Shown: one piece after another, positions 3,561-57,437 of the stretch
How positions within the stretch are numbered: position 1 is the first letter of the stretch
How the letters are laid out: every line of letters begins with the position of its first letter
Assembly: GCA_028874175.1 (NCBI GenBank)
Contig: JAPPLN010000117.1
Location: forward strand, 3,938-67,937
Length of the DNA stretch: 64,000 bases
Direction: 5' to 3'
Source: Chloroflexota bacterium
GTDB taxonomy: Bacteria > Chloroflexota > UBA11872
Translations under genes and position numbers: made by a program
Notes under the pieces: generated by a model
What the model was told of the DNA's origin: nothing
The model's database searches: none
What the model saw: only the letters and a program-made list of their open reading frames with translations

Positions 3561-5132
3561 TCAGCCGCCGCGGACCTGGGTGCTGCTACTGGCGCCTATC
3601 TGGATGCCGGCGCCGGCGGTCTGGGACAGCGCCTCCTCCGCGCTTTGCTCGAGGAGTTCGTCGATGGCGGCGGCAGCGCTTGTGATCGCCTCCGCGGGAT
3701 CGGCCTGGCCCAGGGTCATAGGGCCGTCCACGTGCTGCAGCAAGGCGCCCTTGATTGGCGAGGCGTAGGGTCCCGGGATGGCGCGGGCGGCCTGGACCGC
3801 CTGCATGATCGCCCCGGCGTCGGCGTCACCGTAGCCACCCTGGCCGCGCAACTGCTCGGCCGAAGCCCCGCGCGCGGGCACGGTGGCCGCGGGAGCGATC
3901 TGGGCCGCCACCCAGTCCAGGGTCCGGAACGCGGCGTCCCGGTTGGGGCTGGAGGTGAGCAGACTCAGGACGCCGAACACTTCCGATTCGACAGCCGCGA
4001 CGCGCCGGCGCGGCGGGGCGAGCAAGACGCCGCCCCCAAACGGGTTGCCGATGGAGCCGCCGCCGAAGAGTCCGCCAAGGAGGCCGCCAATGGGGGTGCC
4101 GGACATGGCGATCGGCGCGCCCTGGATGGTCATCCGGCCGTCGGTGATCTGCACGGCCACGGCACCCTCACCGGACGCGTCGGGCTCGAACTTCGGGCTC
4201 ACGTCGTCGTTCGCCAGATCGCGCAGGAACTGCACGGCCTCCAGGGCGGTGGTGGTGTCAAGGACCGCCTGCCGCGCCTCCAGGTCGACGACCGAGCCGC
4301 CGTTCTGCCAGATCCACTGCTGACTGGGCAGCATGGTCGGTGGAATCCAGAGTCCCCACTGCGAGGGATTGCCGGCGGCATCCACCTGCATCAGCCGTCG
4401 GGCGGTGTCCCGGAACTGGTCCCAGTCCCAATCGCGCAGGCTTTCCAGATCGACGCCGGCGTCTTCAAGGAGTTCCGGGTTGCACTGCAGCAGGTTGACG
4501 GACGTCCAGAGCGGAATTCCAAAAAGGTCGCCGTCCCAGGTGAGCGCGTCGATGGCGGAGGGCAGGAAGTCGCCGGCATTGAAGTCGGGCGCGGACGCGG
4601 CGGGGCCGTTGACCGCGGCCACGTGTCCGCGGGCGGCCAGCAGCAGGGTCAGATCCGCGTTCAAGAGCAACACCGCGTCGAGCTGCGGATGGCTGGCCAG
4701 CAGGGCCTCGACCGCGGTCGCAATCTCCGTCGCATTGAAGCTGAGGGCCTGCTCGAACTGGACGACGCTCAGGTCGCCCGGGGCCTCCGCGGTCCGCGTA
4801 GCGTCGGCGGCCAGGCCGGTGACGCGCAGGCTCACCTGGTCGAAGAGCGGATTGCCGGTGGGGACGCCAATGGTGATCGGGGCGCCGGGCTGGGGCGTGG
4901 CCTCGCGTTCGTCAGCCGCGACGACGGGTGTGACGGGTCCCGACCCGGATGCGGCGGTTCGGCCCGAGGCCGGCGGCGGTTTGGGCAACTCCGGATCGCC
5001 GCAGGCGGCCAGCACGGCGGCGGCCGATGCGCCGATGGCGGCCCAGCCGGCACACCGAAGCATGGAGCGGCGCGAGATATGGCCGATGTGGTTCAGGGTG
5101 CGGGAGTCAGCGTGACGAAGGTTCGACTTCAT
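3561..5132 (-). CDS. ABC-transporter solute-binding lipoprotein, paralog B (tandem duplicate of 1286..2854)
   Basis: SRRSMLR Tat motif, then lipobox AACGD. It is collinear with paralog A over the full length. Confidence 0.7.
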   Translation of the reverse strand: MKSNLRHADSRTLNHIGHISRRSMLRCAGWAAIGASAAAVLAACGDPELPKPPPASGRTAASGSGPVTPVVAADEREATPQPGAPITIGVPTGNPLFDQVSLRVTGLAADATRTAEAPGDLSVVQFEQALSFNATEIATAVEALLASHPQLDAVLLLNADLTLLLAARGHVAAVNGPAASAPDFNAGDFLPSAIDALTWDGDLFGIPLWTSVNLLQCNPELLEDAGVDLESLRDWDWDQFRDTARRLMQVDAAGNPSQWGLWIPPTMLPSQQWIWQNGGSVVDLEARQAVLDTTTALEAVQFLRDLANDDVSPKFEPDASGEGAVAVQITDGRMTIQGAPIAMSGTPIGGLLGGLFGGGSIGNPFGGGVLLAPPRRRVAAVESEVFGVLSLLTSSPNRDAAFRTLDWVAAQIAPAATVPARGASAEQLRGQGGYGDADAGAIMQAVQAARAIPGPYASPIKGALLQHVDGPMTLGQADPAEAITSAAAAIDELLEQSAEEALSQTAGAGIQIGASSSTQVRGG

Positions 5133-5155
5133 GGCGCGCCTTTGGCTGTCTCCCT

Positions 5156-5198
5156 TGCGCCATCACTCTACGCCGCCCACCGGGCTGCGCCATCACTC
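5156..5198. promoter_or_regulatory. Two direct repeats of TGCGCCATCACTC spaced 30 nt apart, just upstream of the SBP paralog B start
   Basis: Exact 13-nt direct repeat at 5156..5168 and 5186..5198, which is 24-66 nt upstream of the start at 5132. Confidence 0.25.
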
Positions 5199-5363
5199 AA
5201 AAGGACTAATCCTCAGGCCGCACCACCGGCCAATCGGACGAGTTGCCTGTACCGGCGCCCGGGGCCAGACACATGGGACCAAGAGGGTGCCCACAAGGGG
5301 CACCCCTACGGGATGGATGCGGGCGTCGCGGGTCAGCGAGGAATCGGGCCCGGCTTGTCCCGA

Positions 5364-6110
5364 CTAGCGGGTGAAGACGGTGCCGCGGACGTAGTCGGCT
5401 TCGTCGGAGGCCAGGAAGGCGAGGACGCGGGCTACGCCGATGGGGTCGCCGAGTTCGGCGTGGCGGCGGCGGATTTCTTCGTCGGAGACGCCGGCGGCCT
5501 GGCCGACATCGATCACGTTTTGCAGCTTGAGGGCGGTGGCGATGCTGCCCGGGGCCACGGTGTTGACGCGGATGGGGTAGTAGCCCATTCGTCCTTGCAT
5601 GACCAGACCCAGTCCATGTACGGCGCCCTTGCTGGTGCCATAGGCGAACGACGAACTTCCGCTGGTGACCCCGGCGCCGGAGGCCAGCAGCAGGATTACG
5701 CCGCCAGCTTCGCCCATGGCGCGCACGGCGTGCTTGGCGCAGAGGAACATGCCGCGGGCGTTGATGCCGAGAACGCGGTCGAAGGTGGCGGTCTCGAAGT
5801 CCTCGATAGGAATCGTGGCGCCCTGGAGGATGCCGGCGCAGGCGATGAGGACGTTGAGGCGGCCAAGCTCTGATGTTGCGGCGAGCAGGTCTTCGACGTC
5901 GGATTCGTTAGCTACGTCGCAGGCGACGAAGTGGACGGTCTGCCCTTGGGCGGCCAGGTTGTCGGCAATGGCCGCGCCCTCACTCTGCGGGAGGTCGGCG
6001 AGCACCACGCGGGCGCCGCGCTGGGCGCAAAGCTCGACCGTGGCGCGGCCGATGCCGGATGCGCCGCCGGTGACGATGATGACGCGGTCTTGAAGCGAGT
6101 CGGTGGTCAT
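5364..6110 (-). CDS. Short-chain dehydrogenase/reductase (SDR) family oxidoreductase
   Basis: TGGASGIGRA cofactor motif and YGTSK catalytic motif. The start at 6110 (MTTDSLQDRVIIVTGG) is preceded by GAGGA. Confidence 0.85.
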   Translation of the reverse strand: MTTDSLQDRVIIVTGGASGIGRATVELCAQRGARVVLADLPQSEGAAIADNLAAQGQTVHFVACDVANESDVEDLLAATSELGRLNVLIACAGILQGATIPIEDFETATFDRVLGINARGMFLCAKHAVRAMGEAGGVILLLASGAGVTSGSSSFAYGTSKGAVHGLGLVMQGRMGYYPIRVNTVAPGSIATALKLQNVIDVGQAAGVSDEEIRRRHAELGDPIGVARVLAFLASDEADYVRGTVFTR

Positions 6111-6200
6111 CGGACTGCGTCCTCGTGGAGGTTGCAATGTTTCACGTGAAACATTCGCGCTGTTTCTGACCGCAGAGCCGAACTTCGGGCTTCAACGGCA

Positions 6201-7061
6201 TCAGGCAGGATCCCAGTTGAGGCCAGCCTCAGCCATTGCGGCGTCGAGGACGCGTTTGGCTTCGGGGATGAGTTCGGGGGGGAGGTGTTCGATGAGGACC
6301 CAGGCGCGGGGGGCGATTTCGTTCAGGGCCTTCAGCCAGGCCGCGTGGTCGACCACGCCCTCGCCGAGCTGGACTTCCTCGATGTGCAGCACCAGGCGGT
6401 CCTCGAGGGTGTAGTCCTTCCAGTGGGCGGCTGGAATGCGTCCCCGAGCGGCCTCCAGCAGGCGGGCATAGACCGGGTCGGGATTCCAGGCGTCCCAGAT
6501 GCTGCCGATGAAGTTCACGGGGTCCAGGTTGAAGCCGAGGGCGTGGGTGGGAATCCGGCGGAAGAGCTCGGCGATGCGCTCGGGACGATCCAGCACCGAG
6601 AGGACGTGACCCTCGACGGTGAGCGTGATGCCTTCGGCCTCGGCGGCCTCGGCTATAGCGGCGATGCTCTCGACGGCGCGGTCGAAGGCGGCGTCCTGGT
6701 GGTGATCGGGATGGGGGTACCAGGGACCGACGGGGTTGAGGCCGCCGGGGCGGATGTAGAGCGTTTCGGCCCGCAGCGCGTGGGCGGCCTGCATGTGCCG
6801 CCGCATGCCGTCGATGCCGGCCTGGCGAACGGCGGGCTCCAGCGAAACCAGCGAGGGGTACTGGCCGTTGGCCTGCGCGACGGTCAGACCCTCGGCGCTG
6901 AGCAGGTCGCCGACGCGTCGGAACTCTTCGATCGAATAGGTATCTGGCTGGCCGAGCTGCACGCTTGTGCCGGTGAAGCCAAGCTCAAGGGCGCGTCGGG
7001 CGTCGGCTGCCGTGATTGACGGGGGAGTGGACGGCAACAGTCCAACGACTCCGCTGCGCAT
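6201..7061 (-). CDS. Sugar phosphate isomerase/epimerase (xylose-isomerase-like TIM barrel)
   Basis: A 286-aa ORF with a composition and length typical of the AP-endonuclease-2/xylose-isomerase-like fold. It lies 52 nt downstream of the MFS gene. Confidence 0.75.
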   Translation of the reverse strand: MRSGVVGLLPSTPPSITAADARRALELGFTGTSVQLGQPDTYSIEEFRRVGDLLSAEGLTVAQANGQYPSLVSLEPAVRQAGIDGMRRHMQAAHALRAETLYIRPGGLNPVGPWYPHPDHHQDAAFDRAVESIAAIAEAAEAEGITLTVEGHVLSVLDRPERIAELFRRIPTHALGFNLDPVNFIGSIWDAWNPDPVYARLLEAARGRIPAAHWKDYTLEDRLVLHIEEVQLGEGVVDHAAWLKALNEIAPRAWVLIEHLPPELIPEAKRVLDAAMAEAGLNWDPA

Positions 7062-7113
7062 ACGCTGGCTCCGGTTGCGTGAGACCAGGTGATGGTAGTA
7101 CGGCGGGGCGGGA

Positions 7114-8424
7114 TCAGTGGTCGGCGGGGTCTACTGCCGCCTCGGCGTCGAGGGTCCAGAGTTCGCGGCCCCAGACCATGATGAAGAGCACGACGGCCAC
7201 GCTGAGACTACCGCCGAGGACCATGGCGGTGGGCATGCCGCGTGTCTCGGCCACGATGGAGATGGGCATCAGGCCCAGCGGCGTAAGGCCCCAGCCGAGC
7301 ATCCAGATGGACATGACGCGTCCGCGCAGGCGGTTGGGCGCGAGCAGTTGAATCATGGTCTGGTTGTTGGCCATGTACACGGCCGAGAAGAGACCGGCGA
7401 ACGCCATGACGATCCCGGCCGCCAGGGGTGAGCGGGTCAGCCCGAGCACGATGATCGCTACGCCGAAGGCGGCGGCGCTGAGCATGACGACCGGGCCCTT
7501 GCGGCGGCTGCCGGCATGGGCGACCACGGCCACCGACCCGATGACCGCCCCGATGCCCTGGGCGGCCAGCACCAGGCCCAACTCCTCCGATCCCGCGTTG
7601 AGGTCCTGCTTCACGAAGATGGGCAGGATCATGACCATGGGCATGCTGAAGAGGGAGGGCGACAGGCCCAGCAGCAGCAGCGCGGCCAGCGGGCGGGTGC
7701 TGAAGGCGAATTTGAACCCGTCGCGCAGCGCGACAAACGGCGATCCGCGGGTCCTGGGGTGCTGATCACCCCCGCGGACCGACAGGACGTTGACCATGCC
7801 CCACAGGTAGCCGCCGGTCTGCACGAAATAGGTGCCGGCGATGCCGATGACGCCGATCAGCCAGCCGGCCAGCGCGGGACCGACGATGCGGGAGGCGTTC
7901 ATGGTGGTGCTGGTGAGCGCGATGGCATTGCTGACGTGGCGGCGCGGCACCAGGTCGGACACCAGGGCGTTGCGGGACGGCACGCTGATGGCGAAGGAGG
8001 TGCCCGCCATGACGCTGGAGACCGCCAGGTGCCAGATCTCAATGCGGCCGGTCGCGACCAGCACGCCAATGGCGAGCCCGGCCGCGGTGAAGATCAGTTG
8101 GGAGGTAATGAGCAGCTTGGTGCGGCTGACGCGATCGGCCAGGACGCCGCCGAACGGCGACAGCACGAGCATGGGAATGGCGCGGACCATGGCCAGGGTT
8201 CCCAGGATGAGCGGAGACTCGGTGATGACCGCGACCAGCCAGCCCTGGGCGACGTTCTGCATCCAGAAGGCCATCATGGTCCCCAGGTTGGCTCGCCAGA
8301 GCCGGACGAAGTCGCGATAGGCAAAGGCGGGCGCCAGGCGGTCGCGGTGTCGGGCCAGGCGCGAGCGCCGGCCGGAGGGGGCTTCGAGCGGCGAGGGCGG
8401 GGCCGCCGGGCTATCGCTGGTCAT
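7114..8424 (-). CDS. MFS transporter
   Basis: 436 aa with about 12 TM segments and MFS-like loop motifs. Confidence 0.85.
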   Translation of the reverse strand: MTSDSPAAPPSPLEAPSGRRSRLARHRDRLAPAFAYRDFVRLWRANLGTMMAFWMQNVAQGWLVAVITESPLILGTLAMVRAIPMLVLSPFGGVLADRVSRTKLLITSQLIFTAAGLAIGVLVATGRIEIWHLAVSSVMAGTSFAISVPSRNALVSDLVPRRHVSNAIALTSTTMNASRIVGPALAGWLIGVIGIAGTYFVQTGGYLWGMVNVLSVRGGDQHPRTRGSPFVALRDGFKFAFSTRPLAALLLLGLSPSLFSMPMVMILPIFVKQDLNAGSEELGLVLAAQGIGAVIGSVAVVAHAGSRRKGPVVMLSAAAFGVAIIVLGLTRSPLAAGIVMAFAGLFSAVYMANNQTMIQLLAPNRLRGRVMSIWMLGWGLTPLGLMPISIVAETRGMPTAMVLGGSLSVAVVLFIMVWGRELWTLDAEAAVDPADH

Positions 8425-8520
8425 GGGTCACGCCTGCGCGGATCCTTCCGGCGAAAACCTGAGATCCGGTTCCGCCAGTCCGAATGATTGACGATTGGCG
8501 GGCGCGCGCCAACTGGCGAA

Positions 8521-9507
8521 CTAATGGCAGGTGACGGACGCGCCACGATCGGCCGCCCGGCGGGCGGCGTCGATGATGTCGACGACCCTTGCAGCCTCTT
8601 GCGCGGAGACGGACATGGGTCGGCCTTCGCGAATGGCGGCGACGAACTCGGTCAGTTCGTCGTTCCAGGGGTCTTCGTCGGGAATGGGCAGCATGCGCGC
8701 CCCGTCGGCGTCGGTGACGCCGAGGTGATCGGCGGCTTCGCTGAAGTCGACCGTCCCCCTCCGGCAGATGACCGTGCGGCCCGACTCGGATGAGCCGTCG
8801 AACCCGCGACGGTAGGTGATGGTCGCCAGACCGCCGTCCTGGAAGCGCAGGTTGACGACGGCCACGGCCCGGTCGAACACATGGCCCGCCGGCTCCATGG
8901 TGGCGGCCGCGGCGATGTGGGTGATTGGCCCGCGGCCGTAGATGGCGGGGTAGCCCAGAAGGATGGCGTAGACGAGGGGGTGTCCGCTGATGCGCTGGTC
9001 GAACCCGGCGTCGCGGCCGGCGCGCAGGTCGTAGGGAAAGTGGACGGTCAGGTCGTCGTGCAACGCACCACCGAGCGCGGCGGTCTGCTCGCGAACAAGG
9101 CGCGGTCCGGGGCGGAGCGGACTGGTGTGGCCAACGCGAATGACAAGTCTTCGCTCTTCAGCCACTCGTAGCAGACGCGAGGCGTCCAGCGTCGTGAGCG
9201 CCAGCGGGGATTCGCTGAAGAGGTGCTTACCGGCCGCCAGAGCGGCCGCGCCCATTGGGGCATGGGTGTCGGGGTGGGTGGTGACGATGACCGCGTCGAC
9301 GTCGGGACGCGTGACCGTTGCCTCCCAGTCCTCGGAGTGCTCGACATCGAATCGCGCGGCCAACGCGGCGCGAGTCTCGGGATTGCGACCGGCGACGGCC
9401 GCGAGATCCAGGTCGGTGCGGGCGGCTATGCGCTCGGCTCGCGCCACGGCCATGCCGCCGCTGCCGACGATGGCGACGCGGAGCGGTGAGGGGGCGGGCT
9501 CAGGCAT
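8521..9507 (-). CDS. Gfo/Idh/MocA-family NAD(P)-dependent oxidoreductase
   Basis: LRVAIVGSGGMA Rossmann N-terminus and the AAALAAGKHLFSEKP family signature. The start at 9507 (MPEPAPSPLRVAIVG) is used. Confidence 0.85.
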   Translation of the reverse strand: MPEPAPSPLRVAIVGSGGMAVARAERIAARTDLDLAAVAGRNPETRAALAARFDVEHSEDWEATVTRPDVDAVIVTTHPDTHAPMGAAALAAGKHLFSESPLALTTLDASRLLRVAEERRLVIRVGHTSPLRPGPRLVREQTAALGGALHDDLTVHFPYDLRAGRDAGFDQRISGHPLVYAILLGYPAIYGRGPITHIAAAATMEPAGHVFDRAVAVVNLRFQDGGLATITYRRGFDGSSESGRTVICRRGTVDFSEAADHLGVTDADGARMLPIPDEDPWNDELTEFVAAIREGRPMSVSAQEAARVVDIIDAARRAADRGASVTCH

Positions 9508-9669
9508 GTGCCGGCCGGCTGAACTGTCGGGCGGGTCGGCTGCTTCGCATCCCAGACTTCTCCGTGAGCGCGGCGTCGCGTCCATTCTGGACGTAGGACG
9601 CGCGGTACGCGAACCCGCGCGGGGCGTGCCATGATGCCGCCGCAGCGATCCCCTGAATCAGGAATACTC

Positions 9670-10722
9670 ATGTCCAATGGCAGCCTCGGCATTGGCATCG
9701 TCGGCGCGGGCGACATCGTGCGCACCCGTCACATGCCGAACCTGGCGGATGTAGACGACATCGCCTTCGTGGCGGTGACGAACCGGCGTCGCGAAACGGC
9801 CGAGGCGTTCGCCGCCGACCACAGCGTGCCGAACGTGGTGGACGACTGGCGGGCCGTGGTGGAGCACCCCGACGTGGACATCGTCTGGATCGGCGCCACG
9901 CCCTACATGCACGCACGGGTCTCGGTGGCTGCCCTGGACGCGGGCAAGCACGTGTTCTGCCAGGCGCGCATGGCGCGCAACCTGGCCGAAGCCCGCGACA
10001 TGCTGGACGCTTCGGAGCGGAACCCCGGGCTCGTCGCGGCCGTCTGTCCGCCCGGCATTGGGGTCGCCGGCGATCGCACGATGCTTCGCCTGCTGAAGAT
10101 CGACCGCTTCATCGGCGCGCTGCGACAGGTGCGCATGTCGTCGTTCGGGGACACCGCCGTTGTGAACGACCTGCTGCACTGGCGGCAGGACTTCGACGTC
10201 AGCGGCTACAACGTGATGAACGTGGGAATCATGGTGGAAGCCCTGCAGCGCTGGGTGGGTCCGGAGCGCAACGTGCAGGCCATGACGCCCGTGCACATCA
10301 AGGAGCGACGCAACCCGGAGACCAACGCTCTTGAGCCGGTGCGCGTGCCCGACTCATTCACCGCGATGGGCGAGCTGGTGTCGGGCGCCGACTACGTGTA
10401 CCAGTGGTCGGGGCTGGCCCATCACGAGCCGGCGACCGAGGTCTGGCTCTACGGTGATCAGGGCACGCTGGTGTACGACTTCGACCACGACACCATTGCG
10501 GGGGCCACGTCGGACGATGACGAGCTGTCGCCGATCGAGATCCCGGCGGACGAGCACTACGACCCGAACGTGGAAACCGATTTCATCGACGCCATCCGCA
10601 GCGGCAGCCACGACACCGGGCTGGCGCCCAGCTTCGCCCGCGCCTTCAAGTACATGGAGTTCATGGAGGCCGCCACTCGATCGGCCCGTGACGGCCTGCG
10701 GATCAGCCTGCCGCTTGACTAG
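9670..10722 (+). CDS. Gfo/Idh/MocA-family oxidoreductase, divergent from 8521..9507
   Basis: LGIGIVGAGDIV and ALDAGKHVFCQARMA motifs. The ATG at 9670 gives MSNGSLGIGIVGAG. Confidence 0.85.
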   Translation: MSNGSLGIGIVGAGDIVRTRHMPNLADVDDIAFVAVTNRRRETAEAFAADHSVPNVVDDWRAVVEHPDVDIVWIGATPYMHARVSVAALDAGKHVFCQARMARNLAEARDMLDASERNPGLVAAVCPPGIGVAGDRTMLRLLKIDRFIGALRQVRMSSFGDTAVVNDLLHWRQDFDVSGYNVMNVGIMVEALQRWVGPERNVQAMTPVHIKERRNPETNALEPVRVPDSFTAMGELVSGADYVYQWSGLAHHEPATEVWLYGDQGTLVYDFDHDTIAGATSDDDELSPIEIPADEHYDPNVETDFIDAIRSGSHDTGLAPSFARAFKYMEFMEAATRSARDGLRISLPLD

Positions 10723-10764
10723 GTGACCGGCGGCCGCAACGGCCTGCAACGTCGGTCCGTTGTC

Positions 10765-13185
10765 ATGGGTGTGAAGGCGTGTCGCCGCCGGCCCCGATTC
10801 ACTGGCCCCCTGCGCGCGGCCTTGCTGGGATTCATCCTGGCTCTGGCGACGACCACGGCTTCGGATGCTCAGGCGCCCGACCAAAGCACGCCGGACACCG
10901 TCGGCGCCTTCTTCGCCGTCGAAGCGCCGGACCTTGGCTTCGCGGTGACCGACTTTGAAGACGCCCGCCTCTGGTCCTCCTGGCGGGACCTGGGCGGCGA
11001 AGGAGTGTTTGGCGCGCCAGTCTCGCGACGATTCACGTTCCAGGGGCAGGTTGCGCAGCTATTCGAGCGCGGAATGTTGCGCTGGAAGCCCGGCAGCGGC
11101 GTCTCCGTGGTCAACGTTATGGATCTGCTGGCGTCGAACGGCTACGACGAGCAACTCCTCAGCGACTTTGGGATTCCGGCGTCCGTCGACTGGTCGGACA
11201 GCGCCGGACTGTCCTGGCCGGAGGTCCAGCGCCGGCACATGGCGCTGCTGGAGGGACCAGAGCCCTGGCGGACCGCGCTGCGCGCTGCGTTCTACACGGC
11301 GGGGGAAGCGCTGGACAGCGACGCCGCCGCCATCCTCCTTCACGGCCTCCCAGTGGCTGTGGCCGAGACACATGCTGGCTATGCGCTGCGGGCACAGCGG
11401 GCGGCCTGGGTGTATGCGCCGGGCATCGACGAGGCGCCGCGCCGCGTGGACATTTCCGGTTTCCTGAAGCAAACGTCGCTGGTGCCCCGACGCGCCGCGG
11501 TGCCCCACGGACCCGACTTCCAGCTTCCGCCACGACCGGTCAGCGCCGTGCAATTCTTCGACTGGTGGAGCCACGACTATCTGCCGACCGAATATTTCAC
11601 CCACGGGTTGTCCTGGGAACGAATCGGCATCACGCGCGATCAGGTCGGGTCGCCGGCCTACTACGACGCGAACTTCCGCCTCATTAGAGACCTGGGCGTC
11701 GACGGTGTGTTCTGGGAGTGGTACGGAACGGCACCAAGCCTGACGCCCACCCCGGTTGTGCTGGACTCCCTGCGACGCCACGGCCTGAAGATTGGCCTGT
11801 TCTACGACTGGGAGCTGCTGTACGCCGGAGGTCAGGCCGTGCTGAGCGACCGCGCATACATCACGCCGAACGAGGCCGGCCTGTCCAAGATCGCCGACGA
11901 GGTGATCGCCTTCTACCAGGGGATTCCGCGGGACCTCTGGCTCTATGACGCCGACGGCCAGCTCCCGGTCATCGTCTACGCCTACGGCTTTCCTGAAGCC
12001 CTGGACGATGCGCAGGGATGGACCTGGTTCTTTACCGAACTGGTGCGACGGGTCGAGTCGGCCCTGGACGTTGACGTGATCTTCGACTGGTCGGTGGCCT
12101 ACCTGCCGCCGTCCCAGGTCCAGGAACTGGCGTTCGAGCGCTGGCCGGACGACTACGCCCCATTCAACTTTGTGGTCGACATTCCCCAGTCGCAGTACGG
12201 CCATCACGTCGTGACGTGGAATTACATCTTCGACAACCGCGGGGTCGCCGAGCGCGACATGCTTCCGCGCCTGATTCGCGATGACAACCGCTATCTCCAG
12301 GAAACGGCGTGGCTGGTCGCGCACACCAATCCCAGCCTGGTTTTCATCTACAGCTGGAACGAGTTCTGGGAGGGCTCGCACCTCTTTCCCGACGACACCT
12401 ACGCGTGGCGGCGTTACGAGCTGGCCAAGGCGCAGTTGGCGGAGCTTGCGGCGACGCGGGTCAACGATTTGCCGCGCGCCGTCATCATCGGGGACCCGGC
12501 CGACGCCTACCCGCCCGGCACGAACGATCTGTTCGAGAGCCAGCGACTACTGATCCGGCACTTCCTGCGCCGGTACGTGCCGCAAGCCACCTTCGTTACA
12601 CCCGCGCGAGCCACGACTGACGTGCTGGCCGGGTACGACCTGGTGGTGAGCCTGACCACGGATCGCGCCATCGATCCGGTACTGGCGGCGCTGCCCGAAT
12701 CGACCCAGATCGTGTATTGGAACGCCACTGACCTGGCAACCGGATTCGCGCAGCGTTTCGTGGAGGCGGTCGAATCCGAGCGTCCCGTGGGGCGGTTCGG
12801 GATTCTGGACCGCGAGGGGCAGGCGGTTGACGACACGATCGGCGCCAGGGGCGACGTCTTGCGGGTCACGCCTGCGGCCGATACCAGCGCGATCCTGCAA
12901 TTCGACCAGCAAGGACAGGCGTATCCGCTGGTGGTGCAAGCCGGAAACGACCACTGGATCAACATCTACGATCCCACGGACGCGGCCCTGGCCGCGGCGT
13001 TTGAGGCTGTGTACGGCCGCGCACTCGAGCCGGCGATAACCTTCGCGCTGCTAGGCAACATCCAACGGCTTGAGGTCTATCCGGACGGGCGGGTGGTGCA
13101 AAACAGGTTCAGCGCGCCGGCGGTGTTCGTTCACGAACCGCTGGCGATACCGGACTTCGAGCCGGCGCCGCCCGAGGGCCTCTAG
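10765..13185 (+). CDS. Secreted 807-aa protein with an N-terminal LGFP-like repeat and a large glycoside-hydrolase-like catalytic region of uncertain family
   Basis: Signal peptide MGVKACRRRPRFTGPLRAALLGFILALATTTASDAQA. LGFP-like segment GFAVTDFEDARLW…FQGQVAQLFERGMLRW. The central region has SWNEFWEGS and YDWELLYAGG motifs reminiscent of TIM-barrel GHs. Confidence 0.6.
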   Translation: MGVKACRRRPRFTGPLRAALLGFILALATTTASDAQAPDQSTPDTVGAFFAVEAPDLGFAVTDFEDARLWSSWRDLGGEGVFGAPVSRRFTFQGQVAQLFERGMLRWKPGSGVSVVNVMDLLASNGYDEQLLSDFGIPASVDWSDSAGLSWPEVQRRHMALLEGPEPWRTALRAAFYTAGEALDSDAAAILLHGLPVAVAETHAGYALRAQRAAWVYAPGIDEAPRRVDISGFLKQTSLVPRRAAVPHGPDFQLPPRPVSAVQFFDWWSHDYLPTEYFTHGLSWERIGITRDQVGSPAYYDANFRLIRDLGVDGVFWEWYGTAPSLTPTPVVLDSLRRHGLKIGLFYDWELLYAGGQAVLSDRAYITPNEAGLSKIADEVIAFYQGIPRDLWLYDADGQLPVIVYAYGFPEALDDAQGWTWFFTELVRRVESALDVDVIFDWSVAYLPPSQVQELAFERWPDDYAPFNFVVDIPQSQYGHHVVTWNYIFDNRGVAERDMLPRLIRDDNRYLQETAWLVAHTNPSLVFIYSWNEFWEGSHLFPDDTYAWRRYELAKAQLAELAATRVNDLPRAVIIGDPADAYPPGTNDLFESQRLLIRHFLRRYVPQATFVTPARATTDVLAGYDLVVSLTTDRAIDPVLAALPESTQIVYWNATDLATGFAQRFVEAVESERPVGRFGILDREGQAVDDTIGARGDVLRVTPAADTSAILQFDQQGQAYPLVVQAGNDHWINIYDPTDAALAAAFEAVYGRALEPAITFALLGNIQRLEVYPDGRVVQNRFSAPAVFVHEPLAIPDFEPAPPEGL

Positions 13186-13358
13186 GTCACGCTGCCTGGG
13201 AGCTATTCCTTGTGCGGCGATGAGCCGACACGAACGAGGGCCGCTCGGCCTCATCGTTACAGCTGTCCCCGCGGCCGGATAAGGTTCGCAAATGAGACGC
13301 CAGCCGCGCACAGCCAGATGAGCCCCTGCCGAGCGACTGCACCACGCGGGCACCAATC

Positions 13359-14594
13359 GTGATCGGCCGAGTCCTGCAACTGCGGGTGGCCGACCCGCGA
13401 CCGGGCGTGCTGCGGCATCGGAACTTCGCGCTCTTCTGGTTCAGCCTGGTGATCTCGCATTCGGGAACCTGGATGCAGATCCTGGTGGTGGGCTGGCTGA
13501 CCGACGAGATGACGCGGTCGGCGTTCTGGGTCGGCATGGTGGCCGCGGCACGCGGCGTCCCCATGGTGGTGCTGCCCTTCTTCGGCGGCGTGGTAGCCGA
13601 CCGGATGGACCGCCGGACGCTGCTGTGGATTACGCAGGTCAGCCAGGCGCTGCTGGGCCTGATCCTGGCAATCGTAGTGGCCGCCGACGTGGCGCAGGTC
13701 TGGCACTTCGCGGTTATCGCCATGCTGGCTTCGATCGCCGGCGCCTTCGATCAACCGACGCGGCAGGCCATCGTGCCCGCGTTGGTTCCCCGAGAGGATC
13801 TGCGGAAGGCCATAGCGCTGCATGCGGTGGTCTTTACCGGCGGGGCATTGCTGGGTCCGGCTATTGCGGGCCTGCTGGTGCCCGTGATCGGCGCGGCCGG
13901 GGTGCTGTTCATCAACGCCGCCAGCACCTTGCCGGTATTCGTTGCGCTGGCGTTGCTGAACCTGCCGCCCTTCAAGCCCCGGCCCCGCGAGGCGGTCTTG
14001 AAGAGCGTGCGGGACGGCCTGCGGTTTGCGTTCAGCCGCGAACTGATCGTACTGGTGCTGCTGGTGTCGGCTGTGGCCAGCCTGTTCGGGCGCTCATTCC
14101 AGCAGTTGGCGCCGGTCTTTGCACGCGAGGTCCTGTTTGCCGACGTGACCGGCCTGGGCTGGCTGATCGCGGCGCCGGGGCTGGGCTCGGTTATCGGCGC
14201 GTTCGTGGTGGCGAGCGCAAACTGGTTGCCGGCCAACGGTCGCCTGGCCGGAATCGCCGTGGCCGGGTACCTGGCGGCGCTGGTGGGATTCGCGGTCTCG
14301 ACGTCCCTGGGCCTTTCGCTGGTGCTGCTGGTGCTGGTGGGGCTCTTGATTACCGTGTTCTCGGCATGCGTGCGGACGATGCTGCAACTGGAGGCGACCG
14401 AGGCCTACTACGGCCGCGTGATGAGCCTGAACACCATCACCTTCATCGGGCTTTCGCCCGTGGGGGCGCTGGTCATTGGAGCCATTGCGGAGTCGGTAGG
14501 CATTCAAGCGGCGACGCTGATCGGCGCAGCCGTGGTGGCGATGGTATTCGCGGTGGTGTGGGTGGCGCGTCCGACGCTGCGTCGGGCTACGTAG
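13359..14594 (+). CDS. MFS transporter (EntS/MFS_3-like)
   Basis: GTG start. About 12 TM segments. N-terminus LRHRNFALFWFSLVISHSGTWMQ is typical of this MFS subfamily. Confidence 0.85.
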   Translation: MIGRVLQLRVADPRPGVLRHRNFALFWFSLVISHSGTWMQILVVGWLTDEMTRSAFWVGMVAAARGVPMVVLPFFGGVVADRMDRRTLLWITQVSQALLGLILAIVVAADVAQVWHFAVIAMLASIAGAFDQPTRQAIVPALVPREDLRKAIALHAVVFTGGALLGPAIAGLLVPVIGAAGVLFINAASTLPVFVALALLNLPPFKPRPREAVLKSVRDGLRFAFSRELIVLVLLVSAVASLFGRSFQQLAPVFAREVLFADVTGLGWLIAAPGLGSVIGAFVVASANWLPANGRLAGIAVAGYLAALVGFAVSTSLGLSLVLLVLVGLLITVFSACVRTMLQLEATEAYYGRVMSLNTITFIGLSPVGALVIGAIAESVGIQAATLIGAAVVAMVFAVVWVARPTLRRAT

Positions 14595-14629
14595 ACTGCG
14601 CCGGATCGGGTTCGACGGGGTATCGACTG

Positions 14630-15478
14630 ATGGCGCACATCGGGGTGTTCTACAGCGAGGGGTTCGATCCCGGGGCGTATTCCATGGCGCTGTATCACGC
14701 GCAGATGGAGGCGGCGCGCGGTGGGCATGGGATGAGCATTCACCAGTTCCCGGAAGGTTCGCTGGCGGCTGCGGCCGAGCGCGCGCCGGAAGTTGACGGC
14801 TTGCTGGCGTTCGCCAGCGGAGCGACCGACCTCGCGTTCCTGCTTGGGCACTCGCGACCGTCGGTGGTGTGCGAGCGCATCGTGCCCGGCTGCGCTTATG
14901 TGGCGCCGGACAATTTCGACATTGGCAGCACGGCCGCGCGGCATCTGCTGGACCTGGGGCACGAGCGCCTGGCAGTGGTGCTGCCGGGCGACCCGGCCAA
15001 CCTGGACAGCTATCACGGCTCCCGCTTTGCCGGATTCCGGGACACGGCAGCCGCTGCGGGATACCCGCTGGACGACTCTGACATCTATTTCGGCGAAAAG
15101 GTCGAAACGACCGGACAAACGGCGGTCGAGGCCATGCTGAAGCGCGGCGATATGCCGGACGCCATCTACGTGCAGAACCTGCCGATGGCGCTGGCCGCGC
15201 TGCGGACGCTAACGGAGGCCGGGGTAGCTGTTCCCCGCGACGTTTCCTTCCTTGGAACCACGTTCGCCCAGTTGAACGTGCCGGCGGCCACCGAGCACAC
15301 GACGCCGCCGATGACGGCCGTGACGTTCGAGAAAGAGGAGATGGGGCGGCAGGGCGTGGCCTACCTGGCCGCGGCAGCCGAGGGCCGAGCGAGTGGGCGA
15401 ATGGAAGCGCTGCTGCCGGGCGTGCTGGTCGAAGGCGCGTCTACCGCAGCCACGCGGGCCGCAGCGTTGGTGGGCTAA
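14630..15478 (+). CDS. LacI-family periplasmic-binding-fold ligand-binding domain protein without the HTH, copy 1
   Basis: Collinear with the LacI/GalR regulatory core: MAHIGVFY…VVCERIVPG…DNFDIGSTAARHLLDLGHERLAVVLPG…GTTFAQLNV…MTAVTFEKEEMGRQGV. The ATG at 14630 sits at the domain boundary and no HTH is encoded in-frame upstream. Confidence 0.7.
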   Translation: MAHIGVFYSEGFDPGAYSMALYHAQMEAARGGHGMSIHQFPEGSLAAAAERAPEVDGLLAFASGATDLAFLLGHSRPSVVCERIVPGCAYVAPDNFDIGSTAARHLLDLGHERLAVVLPGDPANLDSYHGSRFAGFRDTAAAAGYPLDDSDIYFGEKVETTGQTAVEAMLKRGDMPDAIYVQNLPMALAALRTLTEAGVAVPRDVSFLGTTFAQLNVPAATEHTTPPMTAVTFEKEEMGRQGVAYLAAAAEGRASGRMEALLPGVLVEGASTAATRAAALVG

Positions 15479-15552
15479 GCGGCGAACCGGGGCACCGGCG
15501 GGTCCCAGGCTGCGTAGACTGCGCCGAATCTGGTTCGGCCGGAGGCGGGACG

Positions 15553-16398
15553 ATGGCGCACATTGGGGTGTTCTATTGCGAAGGGTTTAACTCCGGCGCC
15601 TATAGCGTGGCGCTCTATCACGCGCAGTTGGCGGCGGCGCGCGGTGGGCATGGGCTGAGCCTGTACACGTTTGCGGAGGGATCGCTGGCGGCCACGGCGG
15701 CACGGGCGCCGGAGGTTGACGGGCTGCTGACCTTTGGGCCCGAGGGCGTGGACCTGGACTTTCTGCGAGGACACGAGCGACCGTCGGTCGTGTGCGAGCA
15801 CGTTGTTTCCGGCTGCGCGAACATTGCGCCGGACAATCACGACATCGGGCGCACGGCCGCGCGGCACCTGCTGGACCTGGGACACGAGCGCCTGGCGGTG
15901 GTCCTACCGGGCGATCCGGCGAAGACGGTCACCTACCACGGGTCTCGATTTGCGGGGTTTCGAGACGCCGCCGCGGCCGCCGGCCACGCACTGGCCGAGG
16001 TGGATATCTACTCTGGCCCACAGGTTGAGACGACCGGACAGACGGCGGCCGAGGCCATGTTGGCGCGCGGCGATCTGCCGGACGCGGTTTACGTGCAGAA
16101 CATGCCCATGGCGCTGGCTGCCCTGCGCACGCTGACGGAGGCTGGCGTCGCCGTCCCTGACGACGTTTCCTTTCTCGGAACCACGTTCACCCAACTGACC
16201 GAGCCGAACGCCACCAATCACACGACGCCGCCAATGACGGCGGTGACGTTCGAGAAAGAGGAAATGGGCCGGCAGGGCGTGGCGTACCTGGCGGCGGCCG
16301 CCGAGGGCCGGACGAGCGAGCGCCTGAAAGTGCGGTTGCCGGGTGTGCTGGTCAGCGGCGCCTCAACGGCCAGAGCAGCGGTCGCGGTGGCGGGCTAG
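15553..16398 (+). CDS. LacI-family ligand-binding domain protein without the HTH, copy 2 (tandem paralog)
   Basis: About 75% identical to copy 1. GGAGGCGGG RBS. The upstream CTGCGTAGACTGCGCCG and the downstream GTCCCAGGCTGCG flanks were duplicated with the gene. Confidence 0.75.
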   Translation: MAHIGVFYCEGFNSGAYSVALYHAQLAAARGGHGLSLYTFAEGSLAATAARAPEVDGLLTFGPEGVDLDFLRGHERPSVVCEHVVSGCANIAPDNHDIGRTAARHLLDLGHERLAVVLPGDPAKTVTYHGSRFAGFRDAAAAAGHALAEVDIYSGPQVETTGQTAAEAMLARGDLPDAVYVQNMPMALAALRTLTEAGVAVPDDVSFLGTTFTQLTEPNATNHTTPPMTAVTFEKEEMGRQGVAYLAAAAEGRTSERLKVRLPGVLVSGASTARAAVAVAG

Positions 16399-16418
16399 GC
16401 GACCCACCCCCGTCGGGT

Positions 16419-16440
16419 CCCAGGCTGCGCGCAGCCTGGG
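16419..16440. terminator. Perfect 22-bp palindrome CCCAGGCTGCGCGCAGCCTGGG between the convergent LacI-LBD copy 2 and ftsK; a bidirectional terminator candidate
   Basis: Read directly: the reverse complement is identical to the sequence. Confidence 0.5.
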
Positions 16441-16460
16441 CCACGGATGGCTTCAGCCGC

Positions 16461-18623
16461 TTAGTCGGCGGGCTGGCGTTGAAGGACGGGGCGGCGCAGG
16501 GACTGGGGTAGGGGTGGGCCGACGAAGCCTTCCTCTTCCAGCCGGTGTCCGAGCTTGAGGGCCAACGTCCGCCCGATTCCCAGTTCACGGGCCAGTTGGT
16601 CGGGCGTAACGCTGTCGTGGCGCATGACCAGTTCGGTGGCTTCCACGAAGATCTCGTCCTCTTCGTCTTCTTCCGACTGCTGGAGTTCCTGCCGGGACAC
16701 CTGCATGGGTTCGCCCTGGTCGCGCCAGTGTTGGACGGCCGCGCGAACTTCCTCGTCGGTGACCCGCACACCCTGGATGCGCTGCGCCTTCCCGCCTTCG
16801 GGCGGCGCGTAGAGCATGTCGCCGCGTCCGATCAGCCGCTCGGCGCCGGCCGCGTCCAGCACTGTGCGCGAGTCAGCCTGGCTGCTGACCATGAACGAAA
16901 TGCGGGTCGGGAAGTTGGCCTTGATCAGGCCGGTGATGACGTCGACCGAAGGGCGCTGGGTCGAGATGACCAAGTGGATTCCGGTGGCGCGGGCCATCTG
17001 GGCCAGACGGGCCAGCAGGCGCTCGACGTCGCCGGGGGCGGTCATCATCAGGTCGGCCAACTCGTCGATCACGACCACTATGTAGGGCAGCGGTCCGTCG
17101 GAGTCCTCAGGCGGCGCGGCGTTGTAGGACGCCAGATTGCGCACGCCGGCCTTGCTGAAGGTGCGGTAGCGGCGGGCCATCTCGTTGCTGACCCAGGTGA
17201 GCACGTCCACGACTTCGTTCACATCGGTGACCACGGGCATGCGCAGGTGCGGAATGCCCTCGAACGCCACCAGCTCGACCATCTTGGGGTCGATGAGGAC
17301 GAACTGCATTTCCTCGGGCGTCTTGGCGAACATGATCCCGGTGATCAGCGACGTGAGGCAGACGGACTTGCCCGCGCCGGTAGCGCCGGCGATCAACACG
17401 TGGGGCATCTTGGCCAAGTCGGCGATGCGCACCTGACCGGCGACGTCCTGGCCGAGCGCGACCTTGATATCGGCGTCCGACTCCGCCCAGGCCTGGCTCT
17501 CCATAACCTCGCGCAGGGTCACGACCGCCGGGTTGTCATTGGGCGTTTCAAGTCCCACGAACGGCTGCCCCGGGACTGGGGCTTCGATGCGCACGCTGCG
17601 GGCGGCCAGCTTGAGGGCCAGGTCGTTGGCTAGTGCGGTGATACGCGCGACCTTGACACCCGGGCCCGGCTCCAGAAGGTATTGAGTCACGACCGGTCCG
17701 GGGACGGCCTCCGCCACCCTGACCTGCACCTTGAAGGACTCCAGCGTCTCCTCGATCGAGGCGGCCTTGCTGACGATCTCGTCTTCCGGGACCTCGCCCG
17801 AGTCCTCGGCTGGCAAGAGCATGTCTACACCCGGCAGCTGCCAGCGACCGTCCTGCTGCGGGGTCGCGGCGGCGGCGGGCATCCGGTCGGCGACGCGAAT
17901 CAGCGGCTGCTGGCCCCAGGCGGGCCCGTCGTCAGCCTGATCCTCTCCAGGCTCGTCCTCAACGGCTTCTTGAGCACCGGCATCCGTCTGCGGGGCCTCG
18001 GCTCGGTCCGCCGGCGAGAACCACGGACGCGCGCGCGCGTTGGCGGCGGCGATGACCCGCAGGAGGCCGCTGCCCAAGAAGCGGGTCGCCTGGATAACGA
18101 ACCGCCCCGGCCGCATCACGGCTTCGGCGCCCCAAGGCGACGCGACCAAGCCGTAAGCAAGGGCCAGGACGGCGGCCACAGCAAGAACCAGGAAGGCAGG
18201 GACGTCGCCAATGGCCGCCCGTATGGCCGACCCGATGAGCCCGCCAATCACTCCGCCGCCTTCAGGCTGACCCTGGTTGGCGACGACGGCGGCGAGGTCG
18301 GTCATTGCCGCGAGCGCCGCGACAAACACGGCTGCCGCGACGAAGTGAGTGACGTCAATGATGGAACGGCGGCGAGCGCCGGCGACCAGGACTGCTCCGC
18401 CGATCATCGCGCCGGCCAACGCGCCCAACGGCGCGGCACGGCCCAGGCCGGCGGCCACGGTTGCGGCCGCGCCCGTCACCACCAACGCGTCGTCGACGAT
18501 GAGGCCGACGAACGACAGTACGCCAAAGGCGGCCACGATGAAGCCGCCAAAGCCCGCGATGTCCCAATGTTCAGGCCGCGTCGCGCGCGCTGGCAGCGCG
18601 GCGGCCTTTCGGCTCGTGGCCAC
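16461..18623 (-). CDS. ftsK: DNA translocase FtsK/SpoIIIE
   Basis: N-terminal TM helices, an acidic linker, Walker A (AGATGAGKS) and a C-terminal gamma winged-helix (VMRHDSVTPDQLARELGIGRTLALKLGHRLEEEGFVGP). Confidence 0.9.
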   Translation of the reverse strand: MATSRKAAALPARATRPEHWDIAGFGGFIVAAFGVLSFVGLIVDDALVVTGAAATVAAGLGRAAPLGALAGAMIGGAVLVAGARRRSIIDVTHFVAAAVFVAALAAMTDLAAVVANQGQPEGGGVIGGLIGSAIRAAIGDVPAFLVLAVAAVLALAYGLVASPWGAEAVMRPGRFVIQATRFLGSGLLRVIAAANARARPWFSPADRAEAPQTDAGAQEAVEDEPGEDQADDGPAWGQQPLIRVADRMPAAAATPQQDGRWQLPGVDMLLPAEDSGEVPEDEIVSKAASIEETLESFKVQVRVAEAVPGPVVTQYLLEPGPGVKVARITALANDLALKLAARSVRIEAPVPGQPFVGLETPNDNPAVVTLREVMESQAWAESDADIKVALGQDVAGQVRIADLAKMPHVLIAGATGAGKSVCLTSLITGIMFAKTPEEMQFVLIDPKMVELVAFEGIPHLRMPVVTDVNEVVDVLTWVSNEMARRYRTFSKAGVRNLASYNAAPPEDSDGPLPYIVVVIDELADLMMTAPGDVERLLARLAQMARATGIHLVISTQRPSVDVITGLIKANFPTRISFMVSSQADSRTVLDAAGAERLIGRGDMLYAPPEGGKAQRIQGVRVTDEEVRAAVQHWRDQGEPMQVSRQELQQSEEDEEDEIFVEATELVMRHDSVTPDQLARELGIGRTLALKLGHRLEEEGFVGPPLPQSLRRPVLQRQPAD

Positions 18624-31351: not shown

Positions 31352-32008
31352 ATGGCATCGCGCCGTCGCCGCCGCACGCGCCGCCAGTCCAGCGCCGCAC
31401 CCAGCAAGAGTCGCTCGTCGAGCTCCGACAAGAGCGGCAAGCGGGATCAGCGCAAGGGCGGGCAGCGCAACCAGCAGAAGGGCGGCCTGGGGCGCGGGTT
31501 CTGGCTGTACATGATCGCGGTGATGGCCCTGTTCATTCCGCTCAACCTGTATTGCCTGAATCAGGCCAGCCCTCCGGGCCCTGGCGAAGAGACCCAGCAA
31601 CAGGCGGCCGCGATTCTGAACTCCGTGAACGACCCGCATGAGCCCTACGCCACCGATCCGCCGACCTCGGGGCCGCACGTGACGCAACTGGCCGCGCATG
31701 GCTATCGGACCGACACCCTGGTGGACGAGATTCAGGTCGCGAACCTCTCACGCGGCTTCGTGATCGTCCACTTCAAGGACGCCGGATTGGAAGCCGAGAT
31801 GCGGCAGTTGGCCGCGGAGTTCGAGGGACACGACGTGATCGTGCAGCCGGACGCCAACCTGCCGGCCGAGACCGCGGTGGCGCTGACGGCCTGGGGCCGG
31901 ATCGAGCGTCTGGACAACTACGACAAAGGCCGCGTTTACAACTTCGTGCGCAATTACGCGGGTCTAGGTCAGCCGCCGGCGACCCCGGCTGCCGGCGGCG
32001 GTGGCTGA
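31352..32008 (+). CDS. DUF3105-family membrane-anchored protein
   Basis: Basic N-terminus, one TM helix, then TSGPHV…GYRTD…RGFVIVHFKD, consistent with DUF3105. Confidence 0.6.
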   Translation: MASRRRRRTRRQSSAAPSKSRSSSSDKSGKRDQRKGGQRNQQKGGLGRGFWLYMIAVMALFIPLNLYCLNQASPPGPGEETQQQAAAILNSVNDPHEPYATDPPTSGPHVTQLAAHGYRTDTLVDEIQVANLSRGFVIVHFKDAGLEAEMRQLAAEFEGHDVIVQPDANLPAETAVALTAWGRIERLDNYDKGRVYNFVRNYAGLGQPPATPAAGGGG

Positions 32009-35526: not shown

Positions 35527-35654
35527 GGTAATTCAATCCTGACGGGGGAGCGCGGGCGGCGCGCACCGGCGGGTCATAGTCAGCGCCGGCGCAAGTTAAA
35601 GGGCGCGACGTGTGGGTAGTGGGCGGTCGGAGCGTTGTGCCGGAGCGGCACTAA

Positions 35655-38288: not shown

Positions 38289-38290
38289 GC

Positions 38291-49927: not shown

Positions 49928-50041
49928 GAAGTCAGCCCAGCGTCATTTCGAGTCCTTGCCCGACGCGAATCGCCACAGTGCCCGACAGTGGTTCGTCTTC
50001 CAATGAGAACCACTGTCGTCATCAGAGCACAAGCTGGATGA

Positions 50042-57282: not shown

Positions 57283-57344
57283 ATGAAGCCACCCTTCTTC
57301 ACATTCGCAGAGGTTCATTCGACCCTTCCGATATTGAATTTTCT

Positions 57345-57437
57345 TCACGTTAAGCCAGGACTGTCAAAGGAGGAGGCGCAGGAGGCGGCGGCCACCGCCA
57401 CCACTGCTGCCATGAGGATTGTTCGTATCCGTCGCAT
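57345..57437 (-). pseudogene. 30-aa mini-ORF duplicating the ankyrin signal peptide (MRRIRTILMAAVVAVAAAS…); a paralog remnant or uORF
   Basis: atgcgacggatacgaacaatcctcatggcagcagtggtggcggtggcc against the real start atgcgacggatacgaacaattctcattgcggccgtcgtggccgtcgct. The differences are largely synonymous. Confidence 0.3.

Follow-up and report, generated by a model that had tools for sequence, protein, structure and literature searches.

LacI/GalR proteins are textbook one-component regulators, in which a sensor is fused to a DNA reader. In Pseudomonas aeruginosa, AmiC sequesters the antiterminator AmiR until its amide ligand binds (PMC12591593), and in Staphylococcus aureus the XylR/ROK-type homologue MecR2, which has no DNA-binding domain, binds the repressor MecI as an anti-repressor (PMC3406092). 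Full-text literature searches found no characterised LacI protein without the DNA-binding helix-turn-helix (HTH), and a search for literature on lac-repressor negative dominance gave nothing useful. Here we describe two adjacent genes for LacI-type regulatory cores that lack the HTH, located on contig JAPPLN010000117.1 of an uncultured Chloroflexota bacterium, within an analysed stretch of 64,000 nucleotides that we refer to as the window. The two proteins are called LBD1 and LBD2, for ligand-binding domain:

14630..15478, + strand: LBD1, a stand-alone LacI-type regulatory core of 282 aa (NCBI MDE2867324.1, exact match, 'substrate-binding domain-containing protein')
15553..16398, + strand: LBD2, a derived paralogue of 281 aa (NCBI MDE2867325.1, 'substrate-binding domain-containing protein')

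It is very probable that the pair are paralogous stand-alone LacI/GalR-type cores, free of headpiece and signal peptide, that they belong to a tiny family of uncultured Chloroflexota with a uniform start, that they arose by one ancestral duplication and are kept under purifying selection, and that they are the last genes of a co-oriented string. Both open reading frames (ORFs) are present at the coordinates given in a preliminary description of this DNA, and the identity between them, put there at about 75%, was measured as 77% for protein and 78% for DNA. In Pfam, both proteins matched only Peripla_BP_3 (9e-27 for LBD1, 5e-27 for LBD2), Peripla_BP_1 and Peripla_BP_4, with no match to the LacI HTH, PF00356; the Peripla_BP_1/3 core, corresponding to LacI residues ~62-330, was recovered at 9e-27 and 1e-16. 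Matches in NCBIfam were partial and far below threshold, and covered the core part only of the RbsR, CytR, GalR, PurR and LacI models, while a PDB sequence search gave 58 matches at E <= 0.001, nearly all of them LacI-family regulators.

The truncation is precise. Aligned with 49 full-length LacI homologues, the proteins start just past the hinge region of the latter, with residue 1 two to three residues short of the first core beta-strand (x-x-I-G-V), and the in-frame DNA 5' of each start is an Arg/Gly-rich read-through of other frames that encodes no HTH. When 49 LacI N-termini were used as tblastn queries, no LacI HTH was found in the window, the best match (E 0.015) being a 19-residue one at chance level, and neither an LacI HTH nor a full-length LacI was found within 10 kb of 35 related loci. 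Pfam, alignment, upstream translation and tblastn thus all agree with the preliminary description that the HTH is precisely lacking and that none lies upstream in frame. There is no signal peptide either, as LBD1 begins with MAHIGVFY directly in the first beta-strand. Nor do the proteins resemble RbsB-type solute-binding proteins of ATP-binding cassette (ABC) transporters: signal peptide and lipobox are absent, the neighbours are an MFS_3 gene (MFS, major facilitator superfamily) and ftsK rather than an ABC permease/ATPase, and LBD2 matched RbsB in NCBIfam at E 1e-3 vs 2e-18 for RbsR.

The predicted fold points in the same direction. The AlphaFold2 (AF2) model of LBD1 has a predicted local distance difference test score (pLDDT) of 93 and a predicted template modelling score of 0.90, and its best PDB matches in Foldseek are LacI-family cores with template modelling (TM) scores of 0.72-0.83, namely reconstructed LacI ancestors, AscG, CelR, PurR, RbsR and CcpA. 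The T-T-F strand is followed by an inserted loop of five residues, at which pLDDT falls to 65; this is the sole low-confidence stretch besides the C-terminal tail. The claim that the proteins stay collinear with the LacI core to the C-terminus was borne out by the alignment, the model and the Foldseek matches. LBD1 and LBD2 are LacI/GalR cores by fold and descent and, by the HTH criterion, they are not LacI-type transcription factors.

Among 5.8 billion proteins, a word-indexed search brought up some 26 relatives of near-full length (275-289 aa, E 1e-167 to 1e-72), all HTH-less, and after them a gap, the nearest full-length LacI regulators following at E 5e-14 with 33-35% identity. Identity to any full-length LacI member was 21-35%. 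The start M-A-x-I-G-V-F is present in 28/28 aligned members, which are 48-93% identical and share 60 invariant columns. Scanning one genome per GTDB species, we found 31 loci with the same start, all but one of them in Chloroflexota metagenome-assembled genomes (MAGs); the exception, a contig binned as Rhodospirillaceae, was identical with a Chloroflexi locus in each tblastn match. Orthologues in related genomes, a point raised for checking in the preliminary description, are thus HTH-less too, among the database homologues as well as the species loci. An exhaustive hidden Markov model search of 1.84 billion 50%-identity representatives gave seven proteins at E <= 1e-30, mostly fragments, against 42,799 LacI-like matches overall, which argues for a family that is tiny, distinct and lineage-restricted. 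Older NCBI records name relatives 'LacI family transcriptional regulator'. To judge from their bin names, the related MAGs appear to be largely sponge-associated. Two ankyrin-repeat proteins are also encoded in the window (49142-49942 and 56335-57363, both on the - strand); ankyrin repeats are eukaryote-like and typical of sponge symbionts, and the two proteins agree with the sponge-type bin names.

In connection with the effector pocket, we used the established inducer-contact positions of E. coli LacI, and the residue-by-residue mapping depends on the E. coli LacI and PurR sequences taken as reference. Arginine R132 (LacI R197) is kept, and is the sole invariant column among all 77 aligned LacI-like sequences; N183 (LacI N246) is kept in the 28 family members. 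Around these two residues the pocket differs from that of LacI: D247 is changed to L/M, Y273-D274-D275 to T-T/S-F, Q291 to F, W220 to K, D149 to E and L148 to C. The replacement of D247, D274, D275 and Q291 by L, T, F and F is found in all or nearly all 28 members, whereas full-length LacI homologues mostly retain the usual N-D, (F/Y)-D-D and Q. As many as 17 of the 20 pocket-equivalent positions examined are invariant across the 28 members. A pocket that appears to have been rebuilt and then frozen in the family argues for a specific ligand, and not a typical neutral sugar.

The two copies are not equivalent in this respect. When copy-1 and copy-2 clades were compared, LBD2 was set apart by fixed substitutions (D13N, P14S, R83H, Y90N, K157Q and N216T) at positions where the rest of the family varies hardly or not at all, while LBD1 keeps the ancestral-type residues there. 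Positions 13 and 157 are pocket-equivalent (LacI L73 and W220), and LBD2 lacks the charged residue at both. Because of these fixed changes, two of them at pocket-equivalent positions, LBD2 appears to be the derived paralogue, and its ligand specificity has probably shifted.

The flanks of the two genes record how the pair arose, and three features of the DNA are needed here:

14590..14603, + strand: left-flank repeat CGTAGACTGCGCCG, which includes the TAG stop codon of the MFS_3 gene at 14592-14594
15502..15526, + strand: duplication junction, GTCCCAGGCTGCG followed by TAGACTGCGCCG, in which the left palindrome arm is joined to the MFS_3-stop sequence with GCT(A/G)CG microhomology
16419..16440, no strand assigned: perfect palindrome of 22 nt, CCCAGGCTGCG/CGCAGCCTGGG, located where the LBD2 and ftsK genes converge

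As the preliminary description proposed, the duplicated unit includes flanking sequence: CGTAGACTGCGCCG precedes both copies (14590-14603 and 15513-15526) and GTCCCAGGCTGCG follows both (15502-15514 and 16417-16429). Of the upstream 17-mer quoted there, 16/17 bases match 5' of LBD1. On the 3' side of LBD2 the GTCCCAGGCTGCG motif runs on into the 22-nt palindrome, which folds (16396-16460) as a GC-rich hairpin without a U-tract. The repeat unit is 923 bp long; the join lies at the MFS_3 stop codon on one side and, on the other, at or slightly past the left arm of the hairpin downstream. An identical junction is present in 7/7 species-level tandem genomes, that is, in the window and at the related loci L004, L005, L006, L007, L009 and L019. 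In single-copy genomes the palindrome, or a variant of it, directly follows the lone LBD gene (same palindrome in L015, L017 and L026; variants in L001, L011 and L021). The common junction of the seven tandem genomes, together with the palindrome after the single gene in single-copy genomes, points to one ancestral duplication event as the origin of the LBD1/LBD2 pair.

In each of the tandem genomes tested, the two copies have a synonymous divergence (dS) of 0.65-0.75; for orthologues of different tandem genomes the value is 0.18-0.23. The ratio of nonsynonymous to synonymous divergence (dN/dS, or omega) is 0.20 between LBD1 and LBD2; two pairs of tandem genomes, compared between species, gave 0.17-0.20 (copy 1) and 0.24-0.31 (copy 2), and comparison with single-copy genomes gave 0.11-0.21. 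These ratios indicate that both copies are maintained under purifying selection. Indeed, the suggestion that the duplication is not fresh and the copies probably maintained fits the dS of 0.65-0.75, the omega of ~0.2 and the junction common to seven genomes. In a neighbour-joining tree, copy 2 falls outside all copy-1-like sequences. Dating the duplication relative to the single-copy genomes was tried and given up, since the dS values (0.5-0.9) are too similar and near saturation, so that an ancient duplication followed by losses and a fast early divergence of copy 2 are inseparable. Three genes of the locus are found in tandem duplicate, the MFS_3 gene (MFS3a) in L019, L021 and L026, the gene for an 820-aa protein in L001 and L009, and the LBD gene in the window, L004-L007, L009 and L019; the locus appears prone to local duplication. 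In L004, L006 and L009, ~0.7 kb of extra sequence, absent from the window, lies between copy 2 and ftsK, and in the gene calls of L004 ftsK is split into two ORFs.

Upstream of the pair, the string consists of the following genes:

9670..10722, + strand: GFO/IDH/MocA oxidoreductase, which opens the + strand string (Pfam; NCBIfam levoglucosan-dehydrogenase and IolG-like matches below cut-off)
10723..13185, + strand: secreted orphan protein of 820 aa, hydrophobic in an N-terminal segment and with a TIM barrel of glycosidase-like fold (AF2, Foldseek)
13359..14594, + strand: MFS_3 transporter, EntS-like, DHA3-type (Pfam MFS_3 2e-46; NCBIfam 2A0121 and EntS matches below cut-off)

LBD1 and LBD2 lie head-to-tail as the last genes of this co-oriented string, which runs from the oxidoreductase through the 820-aa protein and MFS_3 to the cores and is convergent on ftsK, RNase J, UDG and dapA. 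LBD1 begins 35 nt after the MFS_3 stop codon (in the window and L001, where this distance was read, it is about 35-40 nt), and LBD2 has a GGAGG 9-13 nt 5' of its ATG. Of the earlier statement that the cores follow an MFS transporter, the position directly upstream is correct, but in Pfam and NCBIfam the transporter is of the MFS_3/EntS-like DHA3 type and not a sugar-porter-type MFS. Across the divergent promoter lie a second GFO/IDH/MocA oxidoreductase, a second MFS_3, a xylose-isomerase-like TIM-barrel protein, a short-chain dehydrogenase/reductase (SDR) and two solute-binding proteins. At 5364-10722 and 13359-14594, the locus thus holds the two oxidoreductases (with weak similarity to levoglucosan dehydrogenase, IolG and glycoside-3-dehydrogenase), the xylose-isomerase-like protein, the SDR and both EntS-like MFS_3 transporters. 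Such a combination of genes looks more like oxidative (3-keto) catabolism of glycosides, or catabolism of inositol, than like classical glycolytic use of sugars. The housekeeping genes ftsK, RNase J, UDG, dapA, asd and PNPase separate this locus from a second carbohydrate region, in which a GH106-like rhamnosidase of 1187 aa (31969-35532, - strand) and an ABC-transporter permease (37221-38309, - strand) are encoded.

Sequence searches of Pfam, NCBIfam and the PDB gave no match to the 820-aa protein. Its AF2 model (pLDDT 77) matches GH35-type, GH5 and GH99 enzymes in Foldseek at E 8e-9 to 1e-6, and its homologues come from essentially the same lineage as the cores, those with a source name being Chloroflexota MAGs except for one labelled Actinobacteria. 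Besides the TIM barrel, the model suggests a ThuA-like domain, and an invariant SWNE-x-x-EGSH motif is present.

No regulator of the locus is in sight. Pfam detected no transcription-factor domain among the scanned ORFs of window positions 1..16.4 kb, and for this interval the preliminary description of an island without a canonical regulator stands. As regards RNA regulation, no Rfam family and no tRNA was found in the window, and a consensus scan of 9400-16700 gave no sigma-70 promoter-like sites and terminator-like sites at chance level. The two GFO/IDH/MocA genes diverge from a promoter region (9508-9669) in which an intergenic alignment of 22 loci revealed the conserved boxes CATTCTGGAC, CGCGAACC and GCGTGCCATGATGCC, while neither this alignment nor an inverted-repeat search of intergenic regions gave a conserved LacI-type palindromic operator in the region. 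The boxes, none of which is palindromic, could be promoter elements or a site for a regulator.

The operon is conserved down to 51-58% identity. MFS_3, the neighbour met most often, is upstream of the core gene in 27/35 loci, and immediately upstream in 23; in L003, L015, L020 and L027, ~2 kb is inserted between the two. The most diverged operon, L036, which was found via the 820-aa protein (58% identity), likewise closes with MFS_3 and an HTH-less core of 279 aa. In a distant clade, L028-L035 (50-53% identity), there is no MFS gene nearby, and the core gene lies 8-18 nt after the gene for a 468-aa protein with repeated S/D-x-D-G-x-x-W motifs and no Pfam match, which from these motifs we read as probably beta-propeller glycosidase-like. 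The string of this clade (about 4900-10000) is made up of an ~800-aa polytopic membrane protein, a 319-aa protein, the 468-aa protein and then the core, the first three without significant Pfam match. Its comparable size made the ~800-aa protein a candidate counterpart of the 820-aa one, but we rejected this link, since BLAST shows no relationship between the two and the ~800-aa protein has the appearance of a polytopic membrane protein. The constant feature is thus the position of the core at the end of glycan-processing operons, with no one fixed neighbour.

What the cores do can be approached from their pocket and from what they lack. As a whole, the explanation we put first, and hold tentatively, is that of a cytoplasmic ligand sensor acting via protein contacts or ligand capture; the narrower proposal, a sensor that acts by protein contact, is plausible but calls for somewhat more caution. 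Each core would close its two lobes around a small carbohydrate-derived molecule, because the pocket residues R132 and N183 are kept and the remaining pocket was apparently rebuilt and then frozen in the family. Since the HTH is lacking, the occupancy signal would have to be relayed by protein-protein contact with a putative partner, in the way that AmiC acts on AmiR; the adjacent transporter is a further candidate for this partner. Copy 2 would probably sense a related but different ligand, or tune a mixed dimer with copy 1, because D13N and K157Q remove charged residues at pocket positions. The roles of sugar sensor or cytoplasmic binding protein, both named in the preliminary description, are possible. 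More specifically, the core could be a DNA-independent ligand-gated protein regulator: paired in a mixed dimer, the tandem paralogues would combine two related carbohydrate signals and control either MFS_3 or an unlinked output protein. We regard this version as rather speculative.

Several points weigh against a cytoplasmic sensor of this kind. No partner protein emerged, and beside the family no output gene is conserved, whether of the ANTAR, the HTH or another type; ANTAR or other output domains were absent from the scanned ORFs of the window and from the called genes of six related loci. The neighbours also differ, being MFS_3 in the main clade and the glycosidase-like gene in the distant clade. 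Ligand binding is suggested by conservation only, and dimers of the cores are putative. An acidic pair equivalent to D274/D275 is present in most LacI-family sugar sensors, and its loss could mean that the cleft binds no neutral sugar at all.

Of the alternatives, the one that fares best makes the core a transporter accessory or cytoplasmic ligand trap, which would bind an imported or to-be-exported solute inside the cell and either gate MFS_3 or lower the free solute and pass it to the oxidoreductases. The pocket is invariant, MFS_3 is found upstream in most loci, the 35-40 nt gap (window, L001) contains no terminator-like site, and the MFS_3-core pair persists in L036, the most distant operon. 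Yet the cores of L028-L035 have no MFS gene nearby, and the ~2 kb between MFS_3 and core in four other loci also speaks against a functional pair. We know of no cytoplasmic binding-protein partner of an MFS transporter, and consider this alternative possible but unlikely.

The preliminary description also proposed that the headless cores could be anti-repressors that heterodimerise with full-length LacI paralogues. In a dominant-negative version of this, they would pair with a full-length LacI encoded elsewhere in the genome and so remove it from its operator. Dominant-negative behaviour is classical for subunits of the lacI-d type, and the cores have lost only the DNA-binding part and kept the complete core fold, in a locus without a regulator of its own in 1..16.4 kb; MecR2, a repressor homologue that acts as an anti-repressor without a DNA-binding domain, provides a precedent (PMC3406092). 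However, the proposal is weakened by the distance of any candidate partner. Heterodimers with a full-length LacI are poorly supported because among the 5.8 billion proteins, which take in Chloroflexota MAGs, the nearest one reaches 35% identity at best (33-35%, E 5e-14 vs <= 1e-72 for the near-full-length family), and none is encoded within 10 kb in the 35 loci. The shared divergent promoter region has no conserved LacI-type palindrome, and the clade has long been HTH-less (48% identity span), with no full-length sister copy. Furthermore, the pocket motifs of most full-length homologues are replaced, so that more than the loss of a head separates the core from a resident repressor. Taken together, this makes an anti-repressor improbable.

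Still less probable, and in our view a long shot, is that the core was repurposed for a non-sensing job such as catalysis, with the rebuilt cleft (C81-E82, Y128-H129, K157, K235) as the active site. Many family-invariant polar residues of the cleft do differ from the LacI consensus, and the canonical acidic sugar-binding pair is lost, but every sequence and structure match is to LacI-type regulators, and we know of no enzyme with this sub-fold. Lastly, an artefact or decay, in the form of mis-called starts hiding an HTH or of pseudogenised remnants of truncated repressors, has a negligible chance of being correct: one relative (P0029) is frameshifted and another (P0311) was over-extended to 505 aa by the gene caller, but the in-frame upstream sequence is non-coding junk, the start is uniform in all members, the ORFs are intact in 21/21 genes checked at 15 loci with omega ~0.2, the GC content at third codon positions is 0.81-0.82 (0.82 for LBD1) as in the neighbouring genes, and the AF2 model is confident, so that neither an upstream HTH nor a recent truncation under decay, the two findings that the preliminary description held would speak against it, was observed.

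In this clade the sensor alone appears to have been kept under selection in many species, with its pocket rebuilt and its gene duplicated. If it does regulate via protein contacts, the LacI family would be extended to a mode known from AmiC-AmiR and MecR2, and a mixed-dimer regulator would add a way of signalling that has not been described in the LacI family. It would also help to explain the control of carbohydrate loci without a visible transcription factor in uncultured Chloroflexota. The practical value is modest: the cores offer a compact sensor scaffold, predicted to fold well, with a non-canonical pocket. The family is in addition a marker for an uncharacterised glycoside-utilisation operon with an orphan glycosidase-like family.

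AmiC probably belongs to another branch of the binding-protein fold than the LacI cores. It is nevertheless a close parallel, being a cytoplasmic stand-alone sensor of that fold, without a nucleic-acid-binding domain and encoded inside its own operon (PMC12591593). Its partner AmiR is encoded adjacent to it, whereas no partner gene is conserved beside the LBD family; likewise, sensors of the AmiC/NasS type have an adjacent gene for an ANTAR partner, and there is none beside the LBD family in the scanned genes. MecR2 is alike in being a repressor homologue retained after losing its DNA-binding domain, and it is functional and acts by direct protein contact (PMC3406092). It is of another protein family and fold, however, and MecI is encoded in the MecR2 locus, while no repressor is in view at the LBD locus. 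With the LacI/GalR cores of LacI, PurR, AscG, CelR and RbsR, the family shares the two-lobed type-I periplasmic-binding-protein fold (TM 0.72-0.83), collinearity from the first core strand to the C-terminus, the Arg and Asn equivalent to LacI R197 and N246, and adjoining carbohydrate genes. Unlike them, it has neither the HTH headpiece nor the hinge helix, it carries a five-residue insert, and their N-D, (F/Y)-D-D and Q291 are replaced by N-L, T-T-F and F. Other HTH-less LacI-like proteins are known from metagenomes and generically named 'substrate-binding domain-containing protein' by NCBI. Four of these (P0141, P0184, P0191 and P0226) are similar in length (~280-290 aa) and also start just before the first core strand, but they are remote (E about 1e-21) and keep N-D, G-(F/I)-D-D and L-T-T-x-x-Q. 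HTH-less LacI-like proteins are thus already on record, and what sets the LBD family apart is that it is old, selected, pocket-remodelled, operon-embedded and duplicated.

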